From the NCBI GenBank assembly GCA_964354925.1, contig CAYHBU010000001.1, forward strand, positions 1 through 32,144: a DNA stretch of 32,144 nt, in the 5' to 3' direction. The translations under genes and the position numbers were made by a program. Positions 163 through 13,273 of this stretch are shown here, in pieces. The first letter of the stretch is position 1; every line of letters starts with the position of its first letter. The notes beneath the pieces were generated by a model, which searched no databases, was not told the DNA's origin, and saw only the letters and a list, made by a program, of their open reading frames with translations. Source of the stretch: an uncultured Candidatus Saccharibacteria bacterium. Lineage in GTDB: Bacteria > Patescibacteriota > Minisyncoccia > GWC2-36-17.

Positions 163-1239
163 CTAACCCTCAAAAACTATCACTGGCGGGAGTTTTAGTG
201 TTTTTACCGGCGGTTTAGGATCATAGCCAATCCTAAAAATCATCAATACCGTTTTTTGATCTTCATTAAATACATCGTTTATTTCTTTATCTGCTTGCTT
301 GATAAGCTCTACCTGATTTGGCGAAAACCCGCTAGAATCACCGGCCAATATTCTCCTGGCAAGATAAGGTATGCCCGTCATAGGCTGCAAACTTAGCCCA
401 AGTTTTGTGATTGTCAGCCAAATTCTTTGCAATAACCTGCCTCCTCTCAAATAGGCTTCGTCTGTTTCTCCATCCACAAGTATCGCGCAAAGCGCAGATG
501 AAGAGATACAGGACTCGGCGCTTTGTTTTTGAATTTTCTTGGCTAATCCGATTTTATTTACCACGTTTACAAATAGCCAATTCCCAAATATTTTCATTAT
601 GGGCAACATAAATGACGGCATGTCGGGGAATTTTGTTTTGATATATAATCCCTTTCTTTTTTCGGCATTTTCTTTTTCTGACCACAAAATACTAGAAAAT
701 ACGATGCCGTGAATCATCTTATTTTCAAAAATTAATCTCTCATGAAGACCAAGTGCCCAGGCCACCTTTTCTATTTCTTTAGAATCTTCAATTAATTTAA
801 TTTTACCGCCCCCAGCTACCGCTTGCTGAGTTTTTAAAATTTCTTCTTTGTGTTCTGATTTGAGCGGTGTTTTTTGATATATTCTACGATTAGTAGCGCG
901 ATTAAGTATATAGTTTAACAATGAATCTTCTTTTGGCTCTGCTTTGTCCAAAATCACGATAGCAACGATATCAGACTGACTCTTATCCGGGAAAATTTCT
1001 ATATTTGCATGATAGCCATATTTAAGAGCAATGATCGAGATGTTTTCCAGCAACGCTCCATGAGCGATATAAGAGCCTTTTTGATCGAAATTATAAGGCG
1101 TGATGTCTCCATCAGAAACATTACGGATGTAGATTTTATTTCCCCTAACTACAAATTTCCATGGCTGAGAATTATTCCCGGAAGGAGCATTTACCGCATG
1201 CTCAAGAATATTTTTTATTGTATCTTTCATATTTTCCAT
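163..1239 (-). CDS. tandem-domain nitroreductase-family (FMN) oxidoreductase
   Basis: 358-aa ORF. N-terminal HAVNAPSGNNSQPWKF matches the nitroreductase FMN-site motif, and a second nitroreductase-like half follows. The start overlaps the stop of the upstream E1-like ORF by 13 nt. Confidence 0.8.
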   Translation of the reverse strand: MENMKDTIKNILEHAVNAPSGNNSQPWKFVVRGNKIYIRNVSDGDITPYNFDQKGSYIAHGALLENISIIALKYGYHANIEIFPDKSQSDIVAIVILDKAEPKEDSLLNYILNRATNRRIYQKTPLKSEHKEEILKTQQAVAGGGKIKLIEDSKEIEKVAWALGLHERLIFENKMIHGIVFSSILWSEKENAEKRKGLYIKTKFPDMPSFMLPIMKIFGNWLFVNVVNKIGLAKKIQKQSAESCISSSALCAILVDGETDEAYLRGGRLLQRIWLTITKLGLSLQPMTGIPYLARRILAGDSSGFSPNQVELIKQADKEINDVFNEDQKTVLMIFRIGYDPKPPVKTLKLPPVIVFEG

Positions 1240-2243
1240 ATATTTAAATCAATCATATATCTTCCTGATTTTATTTTCTGACCGGATGCAATTTTAGAAA
1301 TTGCGAGAGCAACGGCGGAACTCGAAGCCAAAGAAGTGATGCCAAGCTGCGGCACGCCGGCCAAAGTATTGCCAACTTCTTTCAAGGACAACATCAACTT
1401 TTCACTGAAAAGATCTTTGTCTAATATTTTTCTTGTAGCTTCGATCCATTTTGGAGAATGTGATACAAGATTTTTGAAATCATTGGGGTCGAATTCGCCC
1501 AATAACCCATGAAAGATCTCTCTTTTGGGCTCAATATCAAATCGTTCTATGTCTATTATCGTTTTTTCTCCTAGATTTGTGGCCATTAAAACCGGTATTT
1601 TATGCTTTCTGGCCAAGATACGCAGCTGAATCTTGATCTCCAAATCATCCAGCTCATCTATCAAAATATCTAATTTCGGCGCACCTTTGATAAATTTATC
1701 CAAATTCTTTAAGTCAACGCCATTTGTCCATGGATCAATTTTTATAAATGGGTTTAATTCGTAAGCTTTTTTCAACGCCGCGATTGTTTTATTCTCCCCT
1801 ATTTCGCTAATTGAATAAAAAAGGCGATTTAAATTCGTAAGCTCTATCGTATCCGGATCCGCTATTCTCAAAAATTTACCTCCTCCGGAAATCAATAGCG
1901 GCCACAATATATTTGATCCAATTGATAAACCAATAATACCTATTTTTGCGTTGTAAAAATTCTTTTGCTCCTCTTTTGTTATTAAATTTTTATTGCGCGC
2001 TGATCTGACTTCCAGAAAAAGATTCTCCGGCAGAGTATATACAACATTATTATTCCATGGAAAATAAACATATACTCCTTTTATTTTTTGATATTTTTTT
2101 AAAAATTCTTCCAGCTTTTCTTTGTTATTTTTAAATTTTGGATATCGAATCTTGAATAATTCTTTTAATTCAGGATTGAAGGCATCGATAAAATTTGCGC
2201 CTTTGGGGATTTTATTTTTATCTTTGAAGATAATTGGTTTCAT
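1227..2243 (-). CDS. E1/ThiF/MoeB-like adenylyltransferase
   Basis: 338-aa ORF. Gly-rich loop KIGIIGLSIGSNIL plus RIADPDTIELTNLNRL are typical of the E1-like adenylation domain. It starts 6 nt after the PaaK-like ORF. Confidence 0.8.
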   Translation of the reverse strand: MKPIIFKDKNKIPKGANFIDAFNPELKELFKIRYPKFKNNKEKLEEFLKKYQKIKGVYVYFPWNNNVVYTLPENLFLEVRSARNKNLITKEEQKNFYNAKIGIIGLSIGSNILWPLLISGGGKFLRIADPDTIELTNLNRLFYSISEIGENKTIAALKKAYELNPFIKIDPWTNGVDLKNLDKFIKGAPKLDILIDELDDLEIKIQLRILARKHKIPVLMATNLGEKTIIDIERFDIEPKREIFHGLLGEFDPNDFKNLVSHSPKWIEATRKILDKDLFSEKLMLSLKEVGNTLAGVPQLGITSLASSSAVALAISKIASGQKIKSGRYMIDLNIWKI

Positions 2244-2249
2244 AATTTT

Positions 2250-3764
2250 TTAGTTATTTTTTACCCATTTTTGTTTTATACCGGGCTTGAAATGCTCCGG
2301 ATGTTCAAATGGCCAAAAAACCAGTTTGGGCGCAGCCCTTTCTTTTAAATGATTATGCAATTCATTAAACTCAGAACTTTTAATGCAAAGCGTTGAAACA
2401 ATTAGATCCGTCAAAGCTTTTTTAAATTGATCATTTATAATTTTATCATTTCTTAACTCAATATTTATTTCCAAATATTGATCTTGATTTGCATCAAATT
2501 TTGTCGAAAGAGAAAATTTGCCCGTCAAATAATCAGCAGCAACTCCACTTATCAATGCATCTCTTATTATCTCCGGGAAAATTTGCAAACCATAAAGCGT
2601 AGTCGACATATCACTCCTTTCGTAAATATACACGAAAGGTAATTCATTAACGTATCCATTTATTCCTGCTTTATTTATCTCATCTTTAATATCGCATCCA
2701 TACTGCTTGAGATTAGAGACGGCATCCTTAAAACTAAAAACTCCGCCACGATCTCCGATGGCATATCTAATAAGTGGTATCGCATTATCACCAGTCAAAA
2801 ACACTTCTCCATCGGGAGCCTCAAAACTGACAAATGACGGATTAAATTGTGCTAGAGTCGGTGTTTTATTGATATTAGAAAATAATTTGTTAAATAAATT
2901 TTTATTGCCCATTGATAATCTTTTTATCAGCGTGGCTCCGCCTGTTTCCCATGCCATCGCGCCAATATCAGCGCTTCCATAAATATGTATTATGTCTAGA
3001 TATGGGCTTCTGATCCTAGCCTTTTGAACAATATAATCCCTAAAATTTTCCGTAAAAACTTCAGCCGCAAAAACCAATCTTAAATTTATTTTACTTAAAT
3101 TAATGTCTCTCCCTGAAGCCTCATCAATTAAATCTTTTATAAATGGAGGATATCCGACTAAAATAGTCTGAGCAAATTTTGGACTTAGTTTCTTTAAAGC
3201 CTTAAATATCTCTTCTTTATTTATGCCGGGGGTCAATATTGAAACAGAATAATCACTTCTTCGACTAGCCATCTCAAAAGCTTCGTACGATATCAATCCT
3301 CCAATCCACACGCCCATCCCAAAGCATACAATAACCAAAATTGGCTCGTTATTAACAATAGAGCTTTGCTCCAAAAATAATTCCTGCAATATAGAGTATT
3401 GCCAATCTATTTTTTCCAATCTGGGAAAATAAAAAGGCTCGCCAGTCGAACCAGAAGTAGATGTGAACACTAAAGGTTTTTTTAGCGAACCATCCCAACA
3501 AAGCTGCTCCAATGGATATTGCCGTAAATAATTTTTCTTATCCATTGGAGGCACATTTTGAAAATCCTGCCAGGTTTTTATTTTTTCCGCCTGAATTTTA
3601 TTTTTCTGCAAAAAATCTTTATAAGCTGGTACATTTTTTGCCGCTTTTTTAAATAAAGCTAGTGACGATTTTTCTCGTTCTTTCATCCAAAAATCGCTAT
3701 TTTTTTCTTTTATAGCTTTTAATATTTTTTCTGTCCTTGATTTTTCGTTATTAAAAAATTCCAT
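2250..3764 (-). CDS. adenylate-forming ligase, phenylacetate-CoA ligase / coenzyme F390 synthetase (PaaK/CapK) family
   Basis: 504-aa ORF with the AMP-binding loop FTSTSGSTGEPFYFP. First gene of a three-gene minus-strand operon. Confidence 0.75.
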   Translation of the reverse strand: MEFFNNEKSRTEKILKAIKEKNSDFWMKEREKSSLALFKKAAKNVPAYKDFLQKNKIQAEKIKTWQDFQNVPPMDKKNYLRQYPLEQLCWDGSLKKPLVFTSTSGSTGEPFYFPRLEKIDWQYSILQELFLEQSSIVNNEPILVIVCFGMGVWIGGLISYEAFEMASRRSDYSVSILTPGINKEEIFKALKKLSPKFAQTILVGYPPFIKDLIDEASGRDINLSKINLRLVFAAEVFTENFRDYIVQKARIRSPYLDIIHIYGSADIGAMAWETGGATLIKRLSMGNKNLFNKLFSNINKTPTLAQFNPSFVSFEAPDGEVFLTGDNAIPLIRYAIGDRGGVFSFKDAVSNLKQYGCDIKDEINKAGINGYVNELPFVYIYERSDMSTTLYGLQIFPEIIRDALISGVAADYLTGKFSLSTKFDANQDQYLEINIELRNDKIINDQFKKALTDLIVSTLCIKSSEFNELHNHLKERAAPKLVFWPFEHPEHFKPGIKQKWVKNN

Positions 3765-3862: not shown

Positions 3863-4612
3863 GTGAAAAACACCAGATTCCCTAAAAAATTTTTAAAATA
3901 TACCCACAAGCCACACCGCTCCACTAAAAATAAGGGTCGGAAGAATCCGGCTGTTTTAATATTGCACGAAATCACTGGCATCACTGAACATACAAAAAGA
4001 GTGGCCCAAAAATTTGCTGACGCGGGTTATATAGCTATTACTCCCAATCTTTTCGAAGATAAAAGAATACAGAAAATATTCAAAGAAATGCCTCGTCTGT
4101 TCGAAAAAGCACAAAAAGAAGGTAAGGATCTTACTGAATTAAATAAGAAGATTAACGAAAAACTATATAAAATACTAAATAGTAAGAAATTTATCGACAC
4201 TACAATCAATAAATTAAATCAATGGATAGACTCGCTTAAATCACTAGACACAGTAGATGCCGATAATATATCAGTCATTGGATTTTCTTTTGGTGGCTGG
4301 TATGCATTTAAACTAATACAACTCAGAAACGACATACGCAAAGCGGTTATTTTTTATGGATTTTATGATGTCACCGAAGAAATGATAAAAGAAGTCAAAC
4401 GCCCAATGCTTGGATTTTATGGAGAACTTGAAAGCAGTATAAATGAAATTCAACGGATTAAGGAATTGGCTAAAAAGTATCAAAAACCAATAAAGATTTA
4501 TATGTGCAAACAGGCAAAACATTCTTTTTTTGATGATACAAACCCAAGAAGATACAATAAAGGAGCTTCGGATTTTGCGTGGAAAAAAACATTGGGATTT
4601 CTAAATAATTAA
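3863..4612 (+). CDS. dienelactone hydrolase family alpha/beta hydrolase
   Basis: AVLILHEITGITEHTKRVAQKFADAGYIAITPNLF and the nucleophile elbow GFSFGG fit the DLH fold. The GTG start lies only 6 nt after a TATAAT box (3851-3856), so the start is uncertain or the mRNA is leaderless. Confidence 0.65.
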   Translation: MKNTRFPKKFLKYTHKPHRSTKNKGRKNPAVLILHEITGITEHTKRVAQKFADAGYIAITPNLFEDKRIQKIFKEMPRLFEKAQKEGKDLTELNKKINEKLYKILNSKKFIDTTINKLNQWIDSLKSLDTVDADNISVIGFSFGGWYAFKLIQLRNDIRKAVIFYGFYDVTEEMIKEVKRPMLGFYGELESSINEIQRIKELAKKYQKPIKIYMCKQAKHSFFDDTNPRRYNKGASDFAWKKTLGFLNN

Positions 4613-4661
4613 TTATTATTAATGGGTTATTTTTTTATTAGTAACCGCTCTTATCACAATC

Positions 4662-5069
4662 ATGACCAACAAACCAATTAAAAAGGCTGGGGCTATAATT
4701 TTAAGTAGCAATGATAAACATAAAATTGCTCTACTTTATCGCGGGAAACATAATGACTGGTCATTTCCAAAAGGTCATATCGAAGACGGAGAGGATTCAA
4801 TAAATGCAATGATAAGAGAAGTAAAAGAAGAAACAGGATTATCAATAAAAATTTTATGTGAGCTACCGGAACAAAATTATCTTCACCCAAGTGGGAATAC
4901 CGTTTCAACAAAAATGTTTCTAGTACAATCCGAAAATGATGATCTTTTAAAATTGGAACATGAAACAGATGATATTAAATGGGTGCCAATAAACGAAGTG
5001 ATCTCGGTCTTGAGTTATAATAATTTAAAGGATTATTTTAAAAAAGTTTACCATATTATTAATAAATAA
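4662..5069 (+). CDS. Nudix hydrolase
   Basis: Nudix box GHIEDGEDSINAMIREVKEETGL (G-x5-E-x7-REUxEExGU). Confidence 0.85.
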   Translation: MTNKPIKKAGAIILSSNDKHKIALLYRGKHNDWSFPKGHIEDGEDSINAMIREVKEETGLSIKILCELPEQNYLHPSGNTVSTKMFLVQSENDDLLKLEHETDDIKWVPINEVISVLSYNNLKDYFKKVYHIINK

Positions 5070-6728: not shown

Positions 6729-7688
6729 ATGGAAATAATCATAGAATATCCAAAATTAGTCAACCTCTACTCGTTCATATCCAATCTTAGCCAATGGAAT
6801 GATTTGGTCTGCATACCTGAGCGAAAGAAGGAATGGATCAAAAGAACTGGAAAATTAAACAAAAAAGATGTTGATGCCCTGAATCGCTTCAGTAGATTAT
6901 TTCAAGAATCCGAATTAAATATCGAAAATATTTTTCTATATGATAACCCGCAATATATCTGGCGGATATTATCAAAAAAAATTGGGTGCGAAAAAACAAA
7001 GGAATTGCGTGACATATTTGCTCTCTTTAAAGAAAGATTCAATGTTATATGGAGCAAGGACATAAACAAGATAAAAAGAATAGAACAAGAATTTTCCAAG
7101 CAAAAAAATCTCTTAAACAAAAATCTAAATATCATTAAAAATCTTTGCGGCATTCCCCAGAATAGGCTAAGCACCGAGATAAGAGTGAGACTGATACTAA
7201 GCAGCAACATCAAAGAAGAAAGCCAAGGATTTGCATATAAAAATATCATTATTCTTGAGTGTTCTGGTTGGCCGATGAAGAAAATAAATTATCTTATCAA
7301 CAACATTTTACTACACGAAAGTTTTCATATCTTATTTAAGCAGAATAAAAAATTATTCAAAAGATTTCAAGGTTTAGTTAATAAAAATAGACAAATATTA
7401 GACAAACATTTTTTAAAAACTTGGGGAGCAGAAATCGTATTCGAAGAAGCATTGGTAAGCAGCTTTATACCAGAAGGATATCTGACAGAAAAAATATCCG
7501 GTCAAAATACAATAAACGAAGCAAAGAGCAAACTGAGGAGTAAAAAGATAACAGGACTAGAAAGATTAAGATATCAATCGGCCATCGACAATTATGATAT
7601 TGCAAAAGAATATGTAGAGGGATGGAAGGTATTGGATACACGATTATTGAATCACGTTATAAGTAAACTATATTCAAATATAAAATAA
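6729..7688 (+). CDS. hypothetical protein with HExxH-like motif
   Basis: 319-aa ORF in which I recognise no family. It contains LLHESFHILF (HExxH). Convergent with the rSAM gene, sharing its terminator. Confidence 0.45.
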   Translation: MEIIIEYPKLVNLYSFISNLSQWNDLVCIPERKKEWIKRTGKLNKKDVDALNRFSRLFQESELNIENIFLYDNPQYIWRILSKKIGCEKTKELRDIFALFKERFNVIWSKDINKIKRIEQEFSKQKNLLNKNLNIIKNLCGIPQNRLSTEIRVRLILSSNIKEESQGFAYKNIIILECSGWPMKKINYLINNILLHESFHILFKQNKKLFKRFQGLVNKNRQILDKHFLKTWGAEIVFEEALVSSFIPEGYLTEKISGQNTINEAKSKLRSKKITGLERLRYQSAIDNYDIAKEYVEGWKVLDTRLLNHVISKLYSNIK

Positions 7689-7712
7689 AAAGAGGCGTTA
7701 TTTCGCCTCTTT
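7689..7712. terminator. bidirectional terminator hairpin
   Basis: AAAGAGGCG-ttattt-CGCCTCTTT begins immediately after the stop at 7686-7688. It overlaps the last codons of the minus-strand rSAM gene. Confidence 0.6.
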
Positions 7713-8789
7713 GGTATAATCCTGAATCACAGAATTAAATCTGCTAAATATCTTTTTCAATGATATGCAAAACATGTTTCGCGAACCATTATCCAATACA
7801 TTCGGCCAATAATCTTGTGGGCATCCTCCACGGCAAACATTAAACCATTCGCAGGAAATACATTTCAAATTCAAAACCTTCATTCTATCTTTAAACCGAA
7901 TAAAATTATCGACTAATGGAACCGCGTCCAAACCATTCTTAATATTGCCAAAACTTAAAGATTCTATCTGTGGCAACGAATCACAAGCATAAATCGATCC
8001 ATCGGGATAAACAGTAAGGTATTTATAACATTCGCCGGAAAACATGCATTCCCTATTATCTCCACCCATCATTGTATTGACTATGCTTTCAATTTCCCTA
8101 ATTTCTATACTTGGATCATCTAGTTTTAGTAATTCATTAAAAATACCTACCAAAAAATCTGCGTAACTTTCAGGGTCGACAGAAAATGGGAGTAAATTAC
8201 CGTCATCGTTACGTCCTTGAACTTGAAGAAATTTTACTTTCTTTATTCCTTTAGAAACAAAGAATTTAAATATTTCTTTCGGGTAATCACAGTTTATAGA
8301 GCTAACACAACAAATAATACTAGGCTCGATATTGAATTTACGAAGCGTATTTATCGCACGCATAACATTATTAAAGCTACCTCTTTCTTCGCTTATTATT
8401 CTCGTCTTATCATGAAAAAACTTTGGGCCATCTAAACTTGTACCGACACTGAAATTATTTTCAGAAAAAAATCTCGCCCACTCGTCATCAATCAATAAAC
8501 CATTAGTTTGTATCGAATTAAATACATCACATCCTTTATTGACCCAAATCGACTGATATTCAATCGCCTTACGATAAAAATCCATACCAGCCAACATTGG
8601 CTCTCCGCCATGCCACACAAACTCTACTCGATCACTCATTTTACAAAATTCATTTATCAATGCTTCTAATGTGACATCAGACATCAACATACTGTCATGG
8701 GAATCAGCTTTCTTTTTCTTGAAATAACAATAACCGCAATCGATATTACATCTACCTCCGATTGGTTTTATTATAGGAGTAAAATTCAT
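7698..8789 (-). CDS. radical SAM/SPASM-domain enzyme, anaerobic sulfatase-maturase (anSME)-like peptide maturase
   Basis: CNIDCGYC (CxxxCxxC) cluster, WHGGEPML, IQTNG, and the C-terminal SPASM motif CISCEWFNVCRGGC (CxxCx5CxxxC). I prefer the ATG at 8789, preceded by GAGGTG, over the GTG at 8801 in the track. Confidence 0.85.
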   Translation of the reverse strand: MNFTPIIKPIGGRCNIDCGYCYFKKKKADSHDSMLMSDVTLEALINEFCKMSDRVEFVWHGGEPMLAGMDFYRKAIEYQSIWVNKGCDVFNSIQTNGLLIDDEWARFFSENNFSVGTSLDGPKFFHDKTRIISEERGSFNNVMRAINTLRKFNIEPSIICCVSSINCDYPKEIFKFFVSKGIKKVKFLQVQGRNDDGNLLPFSVDPESYADFLVGIFNELLKLDDPSIEIREIESIVNTMMGGDNRECMFSGECYKYLTVYPDGSIYACDSLPQIESLSFGNIKNGLDAVPLVDNFIRFKDRMKVLNLKCISCEWFNVCRGGCPQDYWPNVLDNGSRNMFCISLKKIFSRFNSVIQDYTKEAK

Positions 8790-8834
8790 TGCACACCTCA
8801 CTTTATTTTGTTGTTGTGTTTTGAAAAGAGGGGG

Positions 8835-8862
8835 AGATACACACCCCTCTTTCCTCTATCCG
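8835..8862 (-). terminator. intercistronic hairpin / leaky attenuator between peptide gene and rSAM gene
   Basis: 9-bp stem AAAGAGGGG / CCCCTCTTT with a 10-nt loop. On the minus strand it is followed by only a short U tract (CCCCUCUUUUC). It sits in the 78-nt gap between 8868 and 8789. Confidence 0.5.
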
Positions 8863-8867
8863 CCACT

Positions 8868-9017
8868 CTACTTCTTGCGCCAAGGATAGCCTCCGCCAAT
8901 GCCCTTTCCCCAGGCACTGGCATCGCTCTTTTTAACGGCCTCCTGTATCCTTTCTAAAACCTTGGAGCGGCTTAAAGATGTTTGATCTGATTGTCTAACG
9001 ACGATCTTCTTGTTCAT
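8868..9017 (-). CDS. 49-aa candidate RiPP precursor peptide
   Basis: ATG at 9017 is preceded by GGAGAAAAACA (SD GGAG). Peptide: MNKKIVVRQSDQTSLSRSKVLERIQEAVKKSDASAWGKGIGGGYPWRKK. No Cys; Gly/Trp/Lys-rich C-terminus. It lies directly upstream of the rSAM/SPASM gene on the same strand. The track ORF 8868-9065 is a longer in-frame version. Confidence 0.55.
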   Translation of the reverse strand: MNKKIVVRQSDQTSLSRSKVLERIQEAVKKSDASAWGKGIGGGYPWRKK

Positions 9018-9197
9018 TGTTTTTCTCCAATATAAAATTATTATTGAGAAAATTGCCCCTTCCATTTATGTGAACAGAGAGATTTCTCCCTGTAATTGTT
9101 TTAAATGTCCTAGTCCTAGTATTATCAAACATTTTTCATATCGTCAAGGCATGCTTGATTATATAAAATATGTTATTATTCTTAAACTATAAATTTT

Positions 9198-9653
9198 ATG
9201 AAAAAATTACGTCTTTTAGCAAGGGTCGTAACCTACGATAAGAATATTAATAAAATCCTTCTTGTAAAAAATAAAGGGATGAGTTTTTGGTACGCTCCTG
9301 GTGGCGGTTGGGAATATGAAAATGAAAATATTTTAGAATGCGCAAAACGAGAAGTTCACGAAGAAACCGGCTTGCATGTGGACATCAAAAAAATGCTTTA
9401 CGTACAAGAATTTCATGATTCAGCTGAATCAATTTTATTTGAAACATTTTGGCTTGCTGAACTTAGCCACGAACAATCTTTAAATGAAAATCATATCGAT
9501 CTCGATCCGAATGGAAATGTTGAAACTGCTCAGTGGTTCAACAAAGAAGAATTGCAAGATCTCAAAGTTTTTCCAAAACGATTAAAAAATACCTTTTGGG
9601 ATAATATCGAATTAGTTATTAATGGAGAAGACCAATTTATTGGCGTAGACTAG
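9198..9653 (+). CDS. Nudix hydrolase (paralog A)
   Basis: Nudix box GGGWEYENENILECAKREVHEETGL. 141/151 aa are identical to ORF 21338-21793 by manual alignment. Confidence 0.85.
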   Translation: MKKLRLLARVVTYDKNINKILLVKNKGMSFWYAPGGGWEYENENILECAKREVHEETGLHVDIKKMLYVQEFHDSAESILFETFWLAELSHEQSLNENHIDLDPNGNVETAQWFNKEELQDLKVFPKRLKNTFWDNIELVINGEDQFIGVD

Positions 9654-9666
9654 CGACATAAAAATT

Positions 9667-10091
9667 ATGGACAAAAAACTTATAATACATACATTAATTT
9701 TCAATGATCAAAAACAAGTTCTCATCACTAAAAGATCGGAGGTTAATGACGTATTGCCTGGATATTGGGATATTCCTGGCGGATCCCTTGAAGATGGAGA
9801 AGATCCAATAACGGGAGCTATCCGAGAAACCAAAGAAGAATCTGGTCTTGATGTTAAAATTTAAGCTTGTTTTTTTATCACTCTAATGTCGATGCCACCA
9901 AAAACAAGCAATTCGTTACATTGGTTTTCTTGGCTGAGCACGCCTCGGGAGAAATAAAATTAAATCCGGAAGAACATAATGATTTTGCATGGATAAATAT
10001 ATCGGATGCCGCTAAATACCAAAAAGTGCATTATCTCCAAGATTGCCTTGATTTACTAAGCTCAAAAACTCACAATATTTTAAAATTTTAA
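9667..10091 (+). pseudogene. Nudix hydrolase interrupted by a 1-nt frameshift
   Basis: N-terminal half (9667-9864) carries the Nudix box GGSLEDGEDPITGAIRETKEESGL. The C-terminal half continues in another frame from 9858. The frames can only be joined within the A4T3 run at 9856-9862. Confidence 0.7.
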
Positions 10092-11877: not shown

Positions 11878-13214
11878 CTATCCTTTTCTAATCAATTCCA
11901 TAACCTGCGACAAAGACAAACCATCAGAATCCTTGTTATTGCCTACATCTTTCAAGCTCACCTCTTTACCATCTGATGATGGAAAGACGATAAACTTTAT
12001 ATCTTTGCTGATTGCATATTTTATCTGCTCGCTTACCGATTTTTGACCAAGATAGACTTCTACGTCAACACCCTGATCTCTTAAGAAACCGGCTATACTA
12101 AACGAATAATCCGAGCAACCATCCTTAACGGCAACCAAGACTTCTGCGGTAGACTTCTTCCCATCCAAGAGGTTTAGCGCTTGAAGTGCCACTATCAATC
12201 GATCTAATCCGATTGAAGCGCCCACTCCTGGCAATTCTTTGTCGGTATAGAGGCTGGACAGATTATCAAACCGTCCCCCAGAACAAATACTTCCTATCCC
12301 TGGCAGATCATTCAGAATCGTTTCATAGACCGTACCAGTATAATAATCCAGTCCTCTGGCAATAGAAAGATCTATTTTGATATTTTCCTCTGGGATACCA
12401 AGCGACCTGGACTTTCCCAATATTTCTCTCAAGTTTGCTATGCCAATTTCTGCAAGTGGAACACCCGAGAACTCCTTAGCCAACCAATCAAGAACTTCAT
12501 CATTGCTACCATTCAAACCGACAAAGTATATAATCTTATTGATTGCAACCTCATCTTGGCCAATGACAGTCTCCAATTCTCTTTTCACTTCATCGACACC
12601 AACTTTATCTTTCTTATCAATTACTCTAAATATATGCACTGTCTTATCTTCACATTGAGCTGCTTCATCAACCCATTAAGAATCATTCTATTATTGATTC
12701 TTATTGTGAAAGAATCCAAGCCCAATGCCGTCAGTGCAGAAAATATAACCTGGACAACTTCCGCATCAGCAAGATTAGATCTAGTCCCTATCACATCAAA
12801 ATCACATTGATAGAATTCTCTATATCTGCCTCGCTGAGTATTTTCACCTCTCCAAACCGGAGCAATATGGTATCTTTTAAAGGGAAATGAAAGCTCATTG
12901 AAGTGTTGGGCCACAAATCGCGCCAAGGGCACAGTCAAGTCAAACCTAAGCGCAACATCCCTACCTCCATTATCTGTAAATCTGAATAACTGCTTATCAG
13001 TTTCTGTGCCGCCCTTGCCCAATAAAATCTCAGAATATTCAAGCGCTGGCGTATCAATAGGGACATAACCGAAAGATCTATAAACTCTTTCAATAACTTC
13101 CATCATACGCTTCCTGGGAATCATTACTTCTGGCAAAAAATCCCTGAAACCCTTTAATGTTCTTGGCTCGATAATTACCTTCTTTTTTACTTCATTTTGA
13201 TTGTCGTTTCCCAT
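11878..13214 (-). pseudogene. hisS: histidine--tRNA ligase, reading frame broken by a 1-nt deletion
   Basis: N-terminal ORF (12621-13232) has class II motifs (RGFRDFLP-like, FRFDLTVPLAR, YHIAPVWRGENTQRGRYREFYQCDFD). C-terminal ORF (11878-12639) has GLDYYTG, CSGGRFD, GASIGLDRL and an anticodon-binding domain. The frames join if one G is added at about 12651 (AATGTG-GAAGAT gives ..QLNVEDKTVHIF..). The likely start is the ATG at 13214, after GGAGG. Confidence 0.8.
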
Positions 13215-13221
13215 TTTTTTC

Positions 13222-13273
13222 TTGACCTCCACTATTTTATAGTTTATTATACGACGATACTACAAGTTATCAA
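13222..13273. promoter_or_regulatory. overlapping divergent promoters for hisG (+) and hisS (-)
   Basis: Plus strand: TTGACC (13222-13227), 17 nt, TATTAT (13245-13250). Minus strand: TTGATA (13273-13268), 16 nt, TATAAT (13251-13246). The two -10 boxes overlap. Confidence 0.5.

Follow-up and report, generated by a model that had tools for sequence, protein, structure and literature searches.

A minimal three-gene cassette of a Trp/Lys-rich peptide, a radical SAM/SPASM enzyme and an HExxH protein, probably of the RiPP type, in Patescibacteria

Systems in which a radical S-adenosylmethionine (rSAM)/SPASM enzyme is paired with a precursor peptide carrying aromatic-x-X motifs are already known. 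The precursors of triceptides are defined by aromatic-X2-X3 motifs, in which the ring is joined to the C-beta of X3 (PMC11499958), and darobactin contains a Trp(C6)-to-Lys(C-beta) link on the triplet W-S-K (PMC10125368). A cassette of the same general kind was identified in a 32,144-nt stretch of contig CAYHBU010000001.1, the whole of which is referred to as the window. The cassette contains three genes, which encode a short Trp/Lys-rich peptide, an rSAM/SPASM enzyme and an HExxH protein, respectively. It has the generic features of a cassette for a ribosomally made peptide with post-translational modifications (RiPP), namely a conserved short precursor beside a modifying enzyme and a leader/core organisation, and it is probably a minimal three-gene RiPP-type cassette characteristic of Patescibacteria (candidate phyla radiation, CPR). 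By sequence comparison, the rSAM clade, the precursor family and the HExxH protein family are new, and none of them passes a curated Pfam or NCBIfam model. The original prediction, which was made from the DNA sequence alone, had proposed a RiPP precursor with a maturase resembling the anaerobic sulfatase-maturating enzyme (anSME), and had considered a cyclophane-type product plausible. Comparative data support this proposal as far as sequence analysis reaches. The third conserved gene, encoding the HExxH protein, had been missed, and the system is not a one-off: at least 148 clusters of related peptides make up its family in Patescibacteria.

The precursor and rSAM genes are co-directional on the minus strand and are separated by an intergenic gap of 78 nt (8790..8867), and the HExxH gene lies on the plus strand, convergent with the rSAM gene (Table 1). 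The coordinates of the small open reading frame (ORF) and its good Shine-Dalgarno sequence (GGAG at 7 nt) were confirmed, as was the description of the peptide as Cys-free with the triplets W36-G-K38, Y44-P-W46 and W46-R-K48. Public gene calls on identical contigs include the 49-aa product. No Pfam or NCBIfam family matched the peptide or its relatives.

Relatives of the rSAM enzyme were collected from 5.8 billion proteins. They form a tight group of about 35 sequences with 41-76% identity, below which generic anSME-like proteins follow. The few named sources in this group are metagenome-assembled genomes of Patescibacteria/Parcubacteria, Paceibacterota or 'Nanoarchaeota'. Neighbourhoods were counted in the DNA around these relatives, using the 21 family loci with room for a peptide. 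A peptide homolog was found beside the rSAM gene in 21 of 21 loci, and the HExxH gene was likewise present in 21 of 21, so that the small ORF stood up to the conservation test by which the original prediction had proposed to refute itself. The linkage of the three genes is kept across otherwise unrelated neighbourhoods and in two gene orders. In the window's clade (rSAM at least 50% identical), the peptide gene lies just upstream of the rSAM gene (L163, L164, L165, L167, L083, L169, L170 and L171). The sister clade (41-47% identity) has no upstream peptide, and a homologous peptide is encoded immediately downstream of the rSAM gene; the idea of an upstream peptide in every homologous locus was therefore rejected. 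The hidden Markov model (HMM) of the peptide gave no match in about 125 loci with other anSME-like genes. The one exception among the family loci is L084 (1700-2871). An in-frame stop interrupts its rSAM gene at the cluster motif, CxxxCxxC lacks its first Cys and no precursor is detectable, and the HExxH gene is intact. This locus is probably a decaying cassette or pseudogene, or an assembly error.

A neighbour-joining tree of 166 anSME-like sequences placed all partner-linked rSAMs in one clade of 41 (L007 left out). The HExxH partner was detected for 33 of these 41 in the DNA examined, and the 125 other anSME-like sequences had no partner. The window's family is a sub-clade of 23 sequences, all of them with a partner. 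With L007 included, its single weak and probably spurious partner match had moved the most recent common ancestor of the partner-linked rSAMs to a node that took in the entire tree, and L007 was removed for this reason.

The peptide family was collected by profile search, which returned the at least 148 clusters, and motif statistics were calculated over 126 cores. The database labels never go beyond 'hypothetical protein', and the named members are nearly all from Patescibacteria. The core consensus of the window's clade (9 loci) is W-[GN]-K-[GD]-x-G-[GD]-x-Y-P-W-[RSN]-K-K-stop. W-G-K is present in most loci of this clade and is replaced by W-N-K in L083. The sister-clade peptides end in G-P-W-D-K-G-H-W-A-N-R-K-stop (example core GPWDKGHWANRK) and carry W-D-[KQDENR] instead of W-G-K. 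The C-terminus in 115 clusters is G-P-W-D-[K84 Q11 D10 E6 N3 R1]-G-H-W-A-N-R-K, in which W, D, G, H, W and R are invariant. In front of it stand between 0 and 4 copies of the repeat [WY]-[DEN]-K-[AG], in which Tyr can substitute for Trp. Each of the 126 cores contains 2-6 W/Y-x-X units; the third residue is K in 228, N in 128, Q in 12, D in 10, E in 6 and R in 4 units, and Trp makes up 9.5% of the core residues. The conserved unit across the 126 peptides is W-x-K, more generally aromatic-x-[K/N/Q/D/E/R]. The aromatic-X2-X3 motif that defines triceptides is thus present in the family cores, with variation in repeat number and interchange of Tyr and Trp. A leader motif, [VI]-P-[KR]-V-L-L-x-A-K-K, is common to the peptides of both clades in the alignment, and the corresponding leader segment of the window peptide (S18-K30) may serve in recognition.

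The core codons, analysed by the NG86 method, showed proportions of synonymous (pS) and non-synonymous (pN) differences of 0.81 and 0.17 in the window's clade and of 0.88 and 0.07 in the sister clade. The pN/pS ratio is 0.08-0.21, with 0.21 for the window's precursor. These values indicate strong purifying selection on the core codons, with synonymous differences near saturation and non-synonymous differences rare. Because it is conserved beside the rSAM gene and its core pS greatly exceeds pN, the small ORF is taken to be translated and constrained.

Several precursor variants were seen in the family. These include P0151 (70 aa), P0244/P0252 (73 aa) and P0236 (60 aa), among which one has lost the stop after HWANR and reads on and one has five tandem W-[DE]-K units. 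A long N-terminal extension occurs on some peptides of the window's clade. The public call in L171 is a 69-aa ORF (4583-4792) that overlaps and hides the real 47-aa precursor (4761-4904), and annotation can therefore miss precursors of this family.

The rSAM enzyme matches the Pfam domains Radical_SAM and SPASM. An alternative GTG start at 8801 falls within the Shine-Dalgarno sequence of the gene. Since the CxxxCxxC motif starts at residue 14, there is no N-terminal recognition domain of the RiPP recognition element (RRE) type. The original prediction had suggested assigning the subfamily by HMM search; the nearest models were those of anSME and DynA, and no NCBIfam cut-off was passed. The scores were 306.5 bits for anSME (TIGR03942, cut-off 349.45), 244.4 for DynA (NF041298, cut-off 450), 130.1 for DarE (NF038005, cut-off 650), 177 for GrrM/OscB (cut-off 310), 168 for YhhB (cut-off 445), 136 for FxsB (cut-off 370), 126 for AmcB (cut-off 425) and 97 for XyeB (cut-off 450). 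The relatives of the enzyme score 273-316 bits against TIGR03942. Outside the anSME models, the best NCBIfam scores belong to the cyclophane-forming maturases DynA, GrrM/OscB and YhhB. The nearest solved structure is anSMEcpe (4k36-4k39, 266 bits), followed by ChlB (129 bits), CteB (109 bits) and SuiB (25 bits). The rSAM enzymes form a distinct clade between anSME and the cyclophane synthases, and the enzyme most likely cross-links the window peptide.

The enzyme shares with anSMEcpe (TIGR03942) the lack of an N-terminal extension, three [4Fe-4S] sites and a Cys-Asp pair, and anSMEcpe is its closest relative by both sequence and solved structure. The pair C269-D270 aligns with the C-D pair (C276-D277) in the CDF triplet of anSMEcpe. 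That the enzyme is an ordinary anSME serving a sulfatase encoded elsewhere, with a small ORF that is unrelated or spurious, is nevertheless very improbable. Its top NCBIfam and PDB matches (306.5 bits, and 266 bits to 4k36) and the retained C-D pair fit such a role, but the score lies under the cut-off of 349.45, purifying selection acts on the peptide, which accompanies the enzyme in one of two gene orders in 21 of 21 loci, and the clade is separate from the 125 anSME-like sequences without an HExxH partner. No sulfatase domain was found in the 20 larger window ORFs scanned, which include all ORFs of at least 400 aa, in agreement with the original prediction of a window without a sulfatase gene. 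In contrast to anSME substrates, the window core offers neither Cys nor Ser in a (C/S)-x-P-x-R context. Within the last 14 residues Cys occurs in only 2 of the 126 peptides and Ser in 14, by which formylglycine chemistry on the conserved core is excluded at the sequence level. The segment G-Y-P-W-R had been described as a mimic of the sulfatase motif, but L169, L083 and P0252 carry Ser or Asn in place of its Arg, and Pro is missing from that position in the sister clade; since the motif is not conserved, the mimicry is probably coincidental.

The cassette resembles those of the triceptide synthases (XyeB, GrrM/OscB, YhhB, FxsB, HtkB and ChlB) in that an RRE-less rSAM/SPASM enzyme of about 360 aa is encoded beside a short precursor, the C-terminal core of which has one to several aromatic-x-X units with K, N, R, Q or D at X3 and variable repeats. 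It differs from them in that the enzyme passes no triceptide-synthase model and is nearer to anSME, in that the precursor family, the leader motif PKVLLxAKK and the HExxH partner have no Pfam or NCBIfam model, and in that the taxon is Patescibacteria; the crosslink of the window system is a predicted one. DynA is the best non-anSME match of the enzyme (244 bits), and the W-S-K of darobactin is a triplet of the same type as W-G-K and W-R-K of the window. In contrast to DynA and DarE, the enzyme scores far under the respective cut-offs, the core sequences are unrelated, and neither a fused bicyclic W-x-W-x-K nor a linked ABC exporter is present. Tryglysin (WgkA/WgkB of streptococci) has a W-G-K modification site identical to that of the window peptide (PMC9389541). 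WgkB, however, belongs to a StrB-like network and works with the RRE protein WgkC, whereas no RRE-like gene is conserved with the window cassette; W-G-K occurs in the window's clade only, and the lineage as represented by SuiB, the solved StrB-type enzyme, gives only 25 bits. The proteins ChlH, BpmH and PflC provide a parallel for the third gene, as HExxH proteins genetically tied to cyclophane-type rSAMs. The window partner differs from these, and from minigluzincin and SprT-like proteases, in having no significant sequence or fold match.

On the present evidence it is fairly probable that the rSAM enzyme forms Trp-to-side-chain (i+2) crosslinks and that the HExxH protein trims the leader. 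The genes present, their co-occurrence, the conserved motifs, the purifying selection, the intactness of the Fe-S motifs and the exclusion from curated families were observed, and the linked atoms, the order of steps, the peptidase activity and the product function are inferred. The proposed course is as follows. The 49-aa peptide would be a precursor with an N-terminal leader containing (P)KVL..AKK and the C-terminal core W-G-K-G-I-G-G-G-Y-P-W-R-K-K, and the leader would dock on the rSAM enzyme. The 5'-deoxyadenosyl radical would then take a side-chain hydrogen from residue i+2 of Trp, most likely at the C-beta of Lys38 and Lys48, and the resulting carbon radical would add to the indole ring. 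Re-aromatisation would follow by loss of a proton and transfer of an electron to the auxiliary clusters, with the invariant Asp270 as candidate base. In this way every aromatic-x-X unit would be turned into a three-residue cyclophane, each link changing the mass by -2 Da, and the convergent HExxH...E protein, a probable zinc peptidase, would then remove the leader. The steps from hydrogen abstraction onward follow the known behaviour of DarE, DynA and the triceptide synthases (PMC10125368, PMC11499958, PMC11851443).

The same cassette could carry out a different radical chemistry on the same motifs, and this alternative, although unlikely, deserves real weight. It would comprise a tryglysin-like double Trp-Lys link (tetrahydrobenzindole on W-G-K), a WprB-type C-gamma link, a C-O or C-N link of the kind present in darobactin and dynobactin, or, in place of a crosslink, a change such as epimerisation or dehydrogenation. 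The window's clade carries the exact W-G-K motif that WgkB converts by two C-C bonds (PMC9389541; PMC11851443), and the families that score include DynA and DarE, by which ether or C-N links are made as well. In the sister clade, the otherwise invariant W-D-x varies at its third residue (K, Q, D, E, N or R), which argues for hydrogen abstraction at the shared C-beta and against tryglysin-type chemistry on the alpha and delta carbons of Lys (PMC9389541), for which a Lys delta-carbon would be needed. The enzyme has no N-terminal extension and only 25 bits to SuiB, which speaks against the WgkB/StrB lineage, and nothing in the cores is as well conserved as their aromatic residues, which argues for a crosslink rather than epimerisation.

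The partner family was collected by exhaustive profile search and contains 477 representatives at 50% identity, nearly all of them single-domain proteins of 290-345 aa. Across 65 diverse members, which are 19-42% identical to the window protein, the residues H196, E197, H200 and E240 do not vary. The HExxH motif with one Glu 40 residues downstream is the gluzincin zinc-ligand pattern. The partner has no Pfam or NCBIfam family match. Below the thresholds, Pfam matches were obtained to SprT-like proteins in 7 of the 65 members (best E 0.0012) and to DUF5700, a 'putative zinc peptidase' (E 0.0014), and PDB profile matches to Wss1p (E 0.022) and proabylysin. The AlphaFold2 (AF2) model of the protein has a predicted local distance difference test score (pLDDT) of 91.6. 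A Foldseek search of this model against the PDB gave no significant neighbour (best E 0.6), and its low-probability matches are M61/M1 aminopeptidases. An edge strand and the HExxH helix align weakly with Wss1p and proabylysin, and for the helical N-terminal half of about 145 residues no counterpart was found in these comparisons. The protein is probably a zincin-type metallopeptidase that removes the leader, as judged from its motif and weak matches.

That the partner is instead an Fe(II)/alpha-ketoglutarate oxygenase, acting by hydroxylation of the cyclised core or by oxidative cleavage of the backbone like ChlH, PflC and PosC, is unlikely but also deserves real weight. PflC and PosC do both hydroxylation and cleavage (PMC12636437), and the Asp, Asn, His and Lys residues of the core are typical hydroxylation targets. 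For the alpha-ketoglutarate HExxH beta-hydroxylases (IPR026337-type), no NCBIfam match was found at E <= 1 in two members and none in Pfam, and no match appeared in either library even at E <= 1 to 10, assuming that models of this type are present in the libraries. The invariant HExxH and the Glu 40 residues downstream fit the gluzincin pattern rather than an oxygenase, and every weak match is to a hydrolytic zinc protease (Wss1p, proabylysin, SprT-like, DUF5700). Many Patescibacteria are anaerobic fermenters, and such hosts would disfavour an O2-dependent enzyme.

The original prediction had placed a hairpin with a short U tract between the precursor and rSAM genes. The structure is present, although the terminator scan does not call it, because its U run is only 4 long and partly paired within the stem. 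The z value of the window hairpin is -1.5 to -1.9, and 6-10% of shuffled sequences fold equally well. All 9 loci of the window's clade nevertheless have a stable stem-loop at this place, in unrelated sequences and usually with a T-rich stretch after it, with z values of -1.9 to -6.3 (mean -3.8). This recurrence supports a structure that raises the ratio of precursor to enzyme transcript. The hairpin is possibly a partial terminator or a 3'-end stabiliser, and through it the short peptide transcript would probably become more abundant than the enzyme-containing read-through.

Several points weigh against the reading of the cassette as a cyclophane maturase with a leader peptidase. The crosslink chemistry on the W-x-K triplets is predicted from the motifs, and the top score of the enzyme is to anSME and not to a cyclophane synthase (ChlB 129 versus anSMEcpe 266 bits). 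Other linkages are known on W-x-K/R: WgkB joins Trp C5/C6 to the C-alpha/C-delta of Lys, and WprB joins Trp C5 to the C-gamma of Arg (PMC11851443, PMC9389541), so that the regiochemistry is not fixed in the window system. For the partner, no peptidase family or structure gives a significant match, and HExxH proteins beside cyclophane rSAMs can be alpha-ketoglutarate/Fe hydroxylases or oxidative cleavers (PMC12636437). The statistics of the window's own hairpin are weak. No fourth gene is conserved with the cassette in the family loci, where no exporter, immunity gene, RRE or regulator was found.

The same minimal gene content, together with its persistence in strongly reduced genomes, leaves some room for another role of the product. 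The cross-linked peptide might be a conserved, possibly intracellular molecule comparable to PQQ or mycofactocin, such as a Trp-Lys/Asn cross-linked cofactor or an episymbiotic signal, rather than a diversifying antibiotic. The near-invariance of G-P-W-D-x-G-H-W-A-N-R-K across about 115 clusters also fits this role, which is nonetheless considered rather improbable. The near-invariant core hints at a conserved target or role of the product in any case.

The genomes of Patescibacteria (CPR) are very small, and few biosynthetic clusters have been recognised in them. The at least 148 peptide clusters and the 477 partner representatives at 50% identity suggest that these bacteria invest in a specific modified peptide. 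The HExxH protein family that the locus defines has a confidently predicted fold, and none of its relatives is among the solved structures. Nothing on the core sequences, or on rSAM RiPPs or cyclophanes in Patescibacteria, was found in the literature within coverage, outside of which lie supplements and subscription journals.

The partner HMM also finds genes beside more distant anSME-like rSAMs of about 33% identity, which are members of the clade of 41 and lie below every NCBIfam cut-off. Small ORFs beside these rSAMs are rich in W, D, N and G (GWDDQWDHWDQLGSSDPGWGD, WNNWPDWDNGPDFPNWED and WDVDWDNG; also GWDDQWDHWDQ and WNNWPDWDNG). Together these genes look like a broader, uncharacterised superfamily of putative partner-linked peptide maturases.

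Acidic small ORFs rich in W/Y-x-D/N, for example GYGDAGYGDYSDA, were noted beside such distant rSAMs in L117 (1295-1492), L106 (3749-3913), L157 (1989-2150), L147 (5089-5283), L134 (1243-1428), L102 (1287-1523) and L111 (3770-3940). A second, different rSAM of 354 aa with an N-terminal extension is encoded in L089 (1733-2797, minus strand), about 1.2 kb upstream of a sister-clade cassette. In L040, from candidate division SR1, the rSAM falls in the partner-linked clade and no partner was detected by table-11 translation. SR1 reads UGA as Gly, so this translation may have missed both the partner and the peptide.

Table 1. Features of the cassette and its flanks in the window
Feature	Coordinates	Strand	Description
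Precursor gene	8868..9017	-	49 aa and stop; sequence MNKKIVVRQSDQTSLSRSKVLERIQEAVKKSDASAWGKGIGGGYPWRKK; GGAG 7 nt before ATG
Leader segment S18-K30	8928..8966	-	SKVLERIQEAVKK; matches family leader motif [VI]-P-[KR]-V-L-L-x-A-K-K (peptide alignment)
Predicted core W36-K49	8871..8912	-	W-G-K-G-I-G-G-G-Y-P-W-R-K-K; W-x-K occurs twice and Y-P-W once
Hairpin between precursor and rSAM genes	8823..8854	-	GGAAAGAGGGG...CCCCCUCUUUUC; dG -21.4 kcal/mol; UUUUC after
rSAM/SPASM gene, predicted peptide maturase	7698..8789	-	363 aa; ATG at 8789, 6 nt after GAGG
C14-x3-C18-x2-C21 cluster motif	8727..8750	-	CNIDCGYC; invariant in 32 family members
SPASM region	7767..8048	-	8 invariant Cys (C248, C254, C269, C310, C313, C319, C323, C341) and D270 (32 relatives)
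HExxH protein gene, third conserved gene	6729..7688	+	319 aa; homologs at same position in 21 of 21 family loci
Putative metal-binding motif H196-E-S-F-H200	7314..7328	+	Third candidate ligand E240 at 7446..7448
Terminator-like hairpin at rSAM/HExxH convergent junction	7689..7712		9-bp stem, 5 GC pairs, T-rich tail (scan)
Promoter-like site, predicted	9158..9185	-	TTAAGA-16-TATAAT; about 140 nt upstream of precursor start; consensus scan only, 10/12 matches

Searches of a plasmid collection and Rfam, a tRNA scan and a composition profile gave nothing relevant for the window, and no GC anomaly was seen at the cassette. ORFs of the NUDIX hydrolase type lie around the cassette at 4662..5069, 9198..9653 and 9667..10091 on the plus strand, of which 4662..5069 and 9198..9653 only were confirmed by a Pfam NUDIX match; they are not conserved beside the cassette in other genomes. 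A region on the minus strand (163..3764) contains three co-directional genes, with no obvious precursor peptide. Their products are an adenylate-forming enzyme similar to PaaK (504 aa), a protein similar to ThiF (338 aa) and one similar to Acg/nitroreductase (358 aa). The last two resemble a split Rv1355c-family protein, and the region was rejected as a second RiPP cluster in view of its likeness to a split Rv1355c-type ThiF/nitroreductase with a PaaK-like ligase. The gene for histidyl-tRNA synthetase (11878..13232, minus strand) appears as two overlapping ORFs, 12621..13232 and 11878..12639, so that the gene may be split or frameshifted or the sequence may contain an error.

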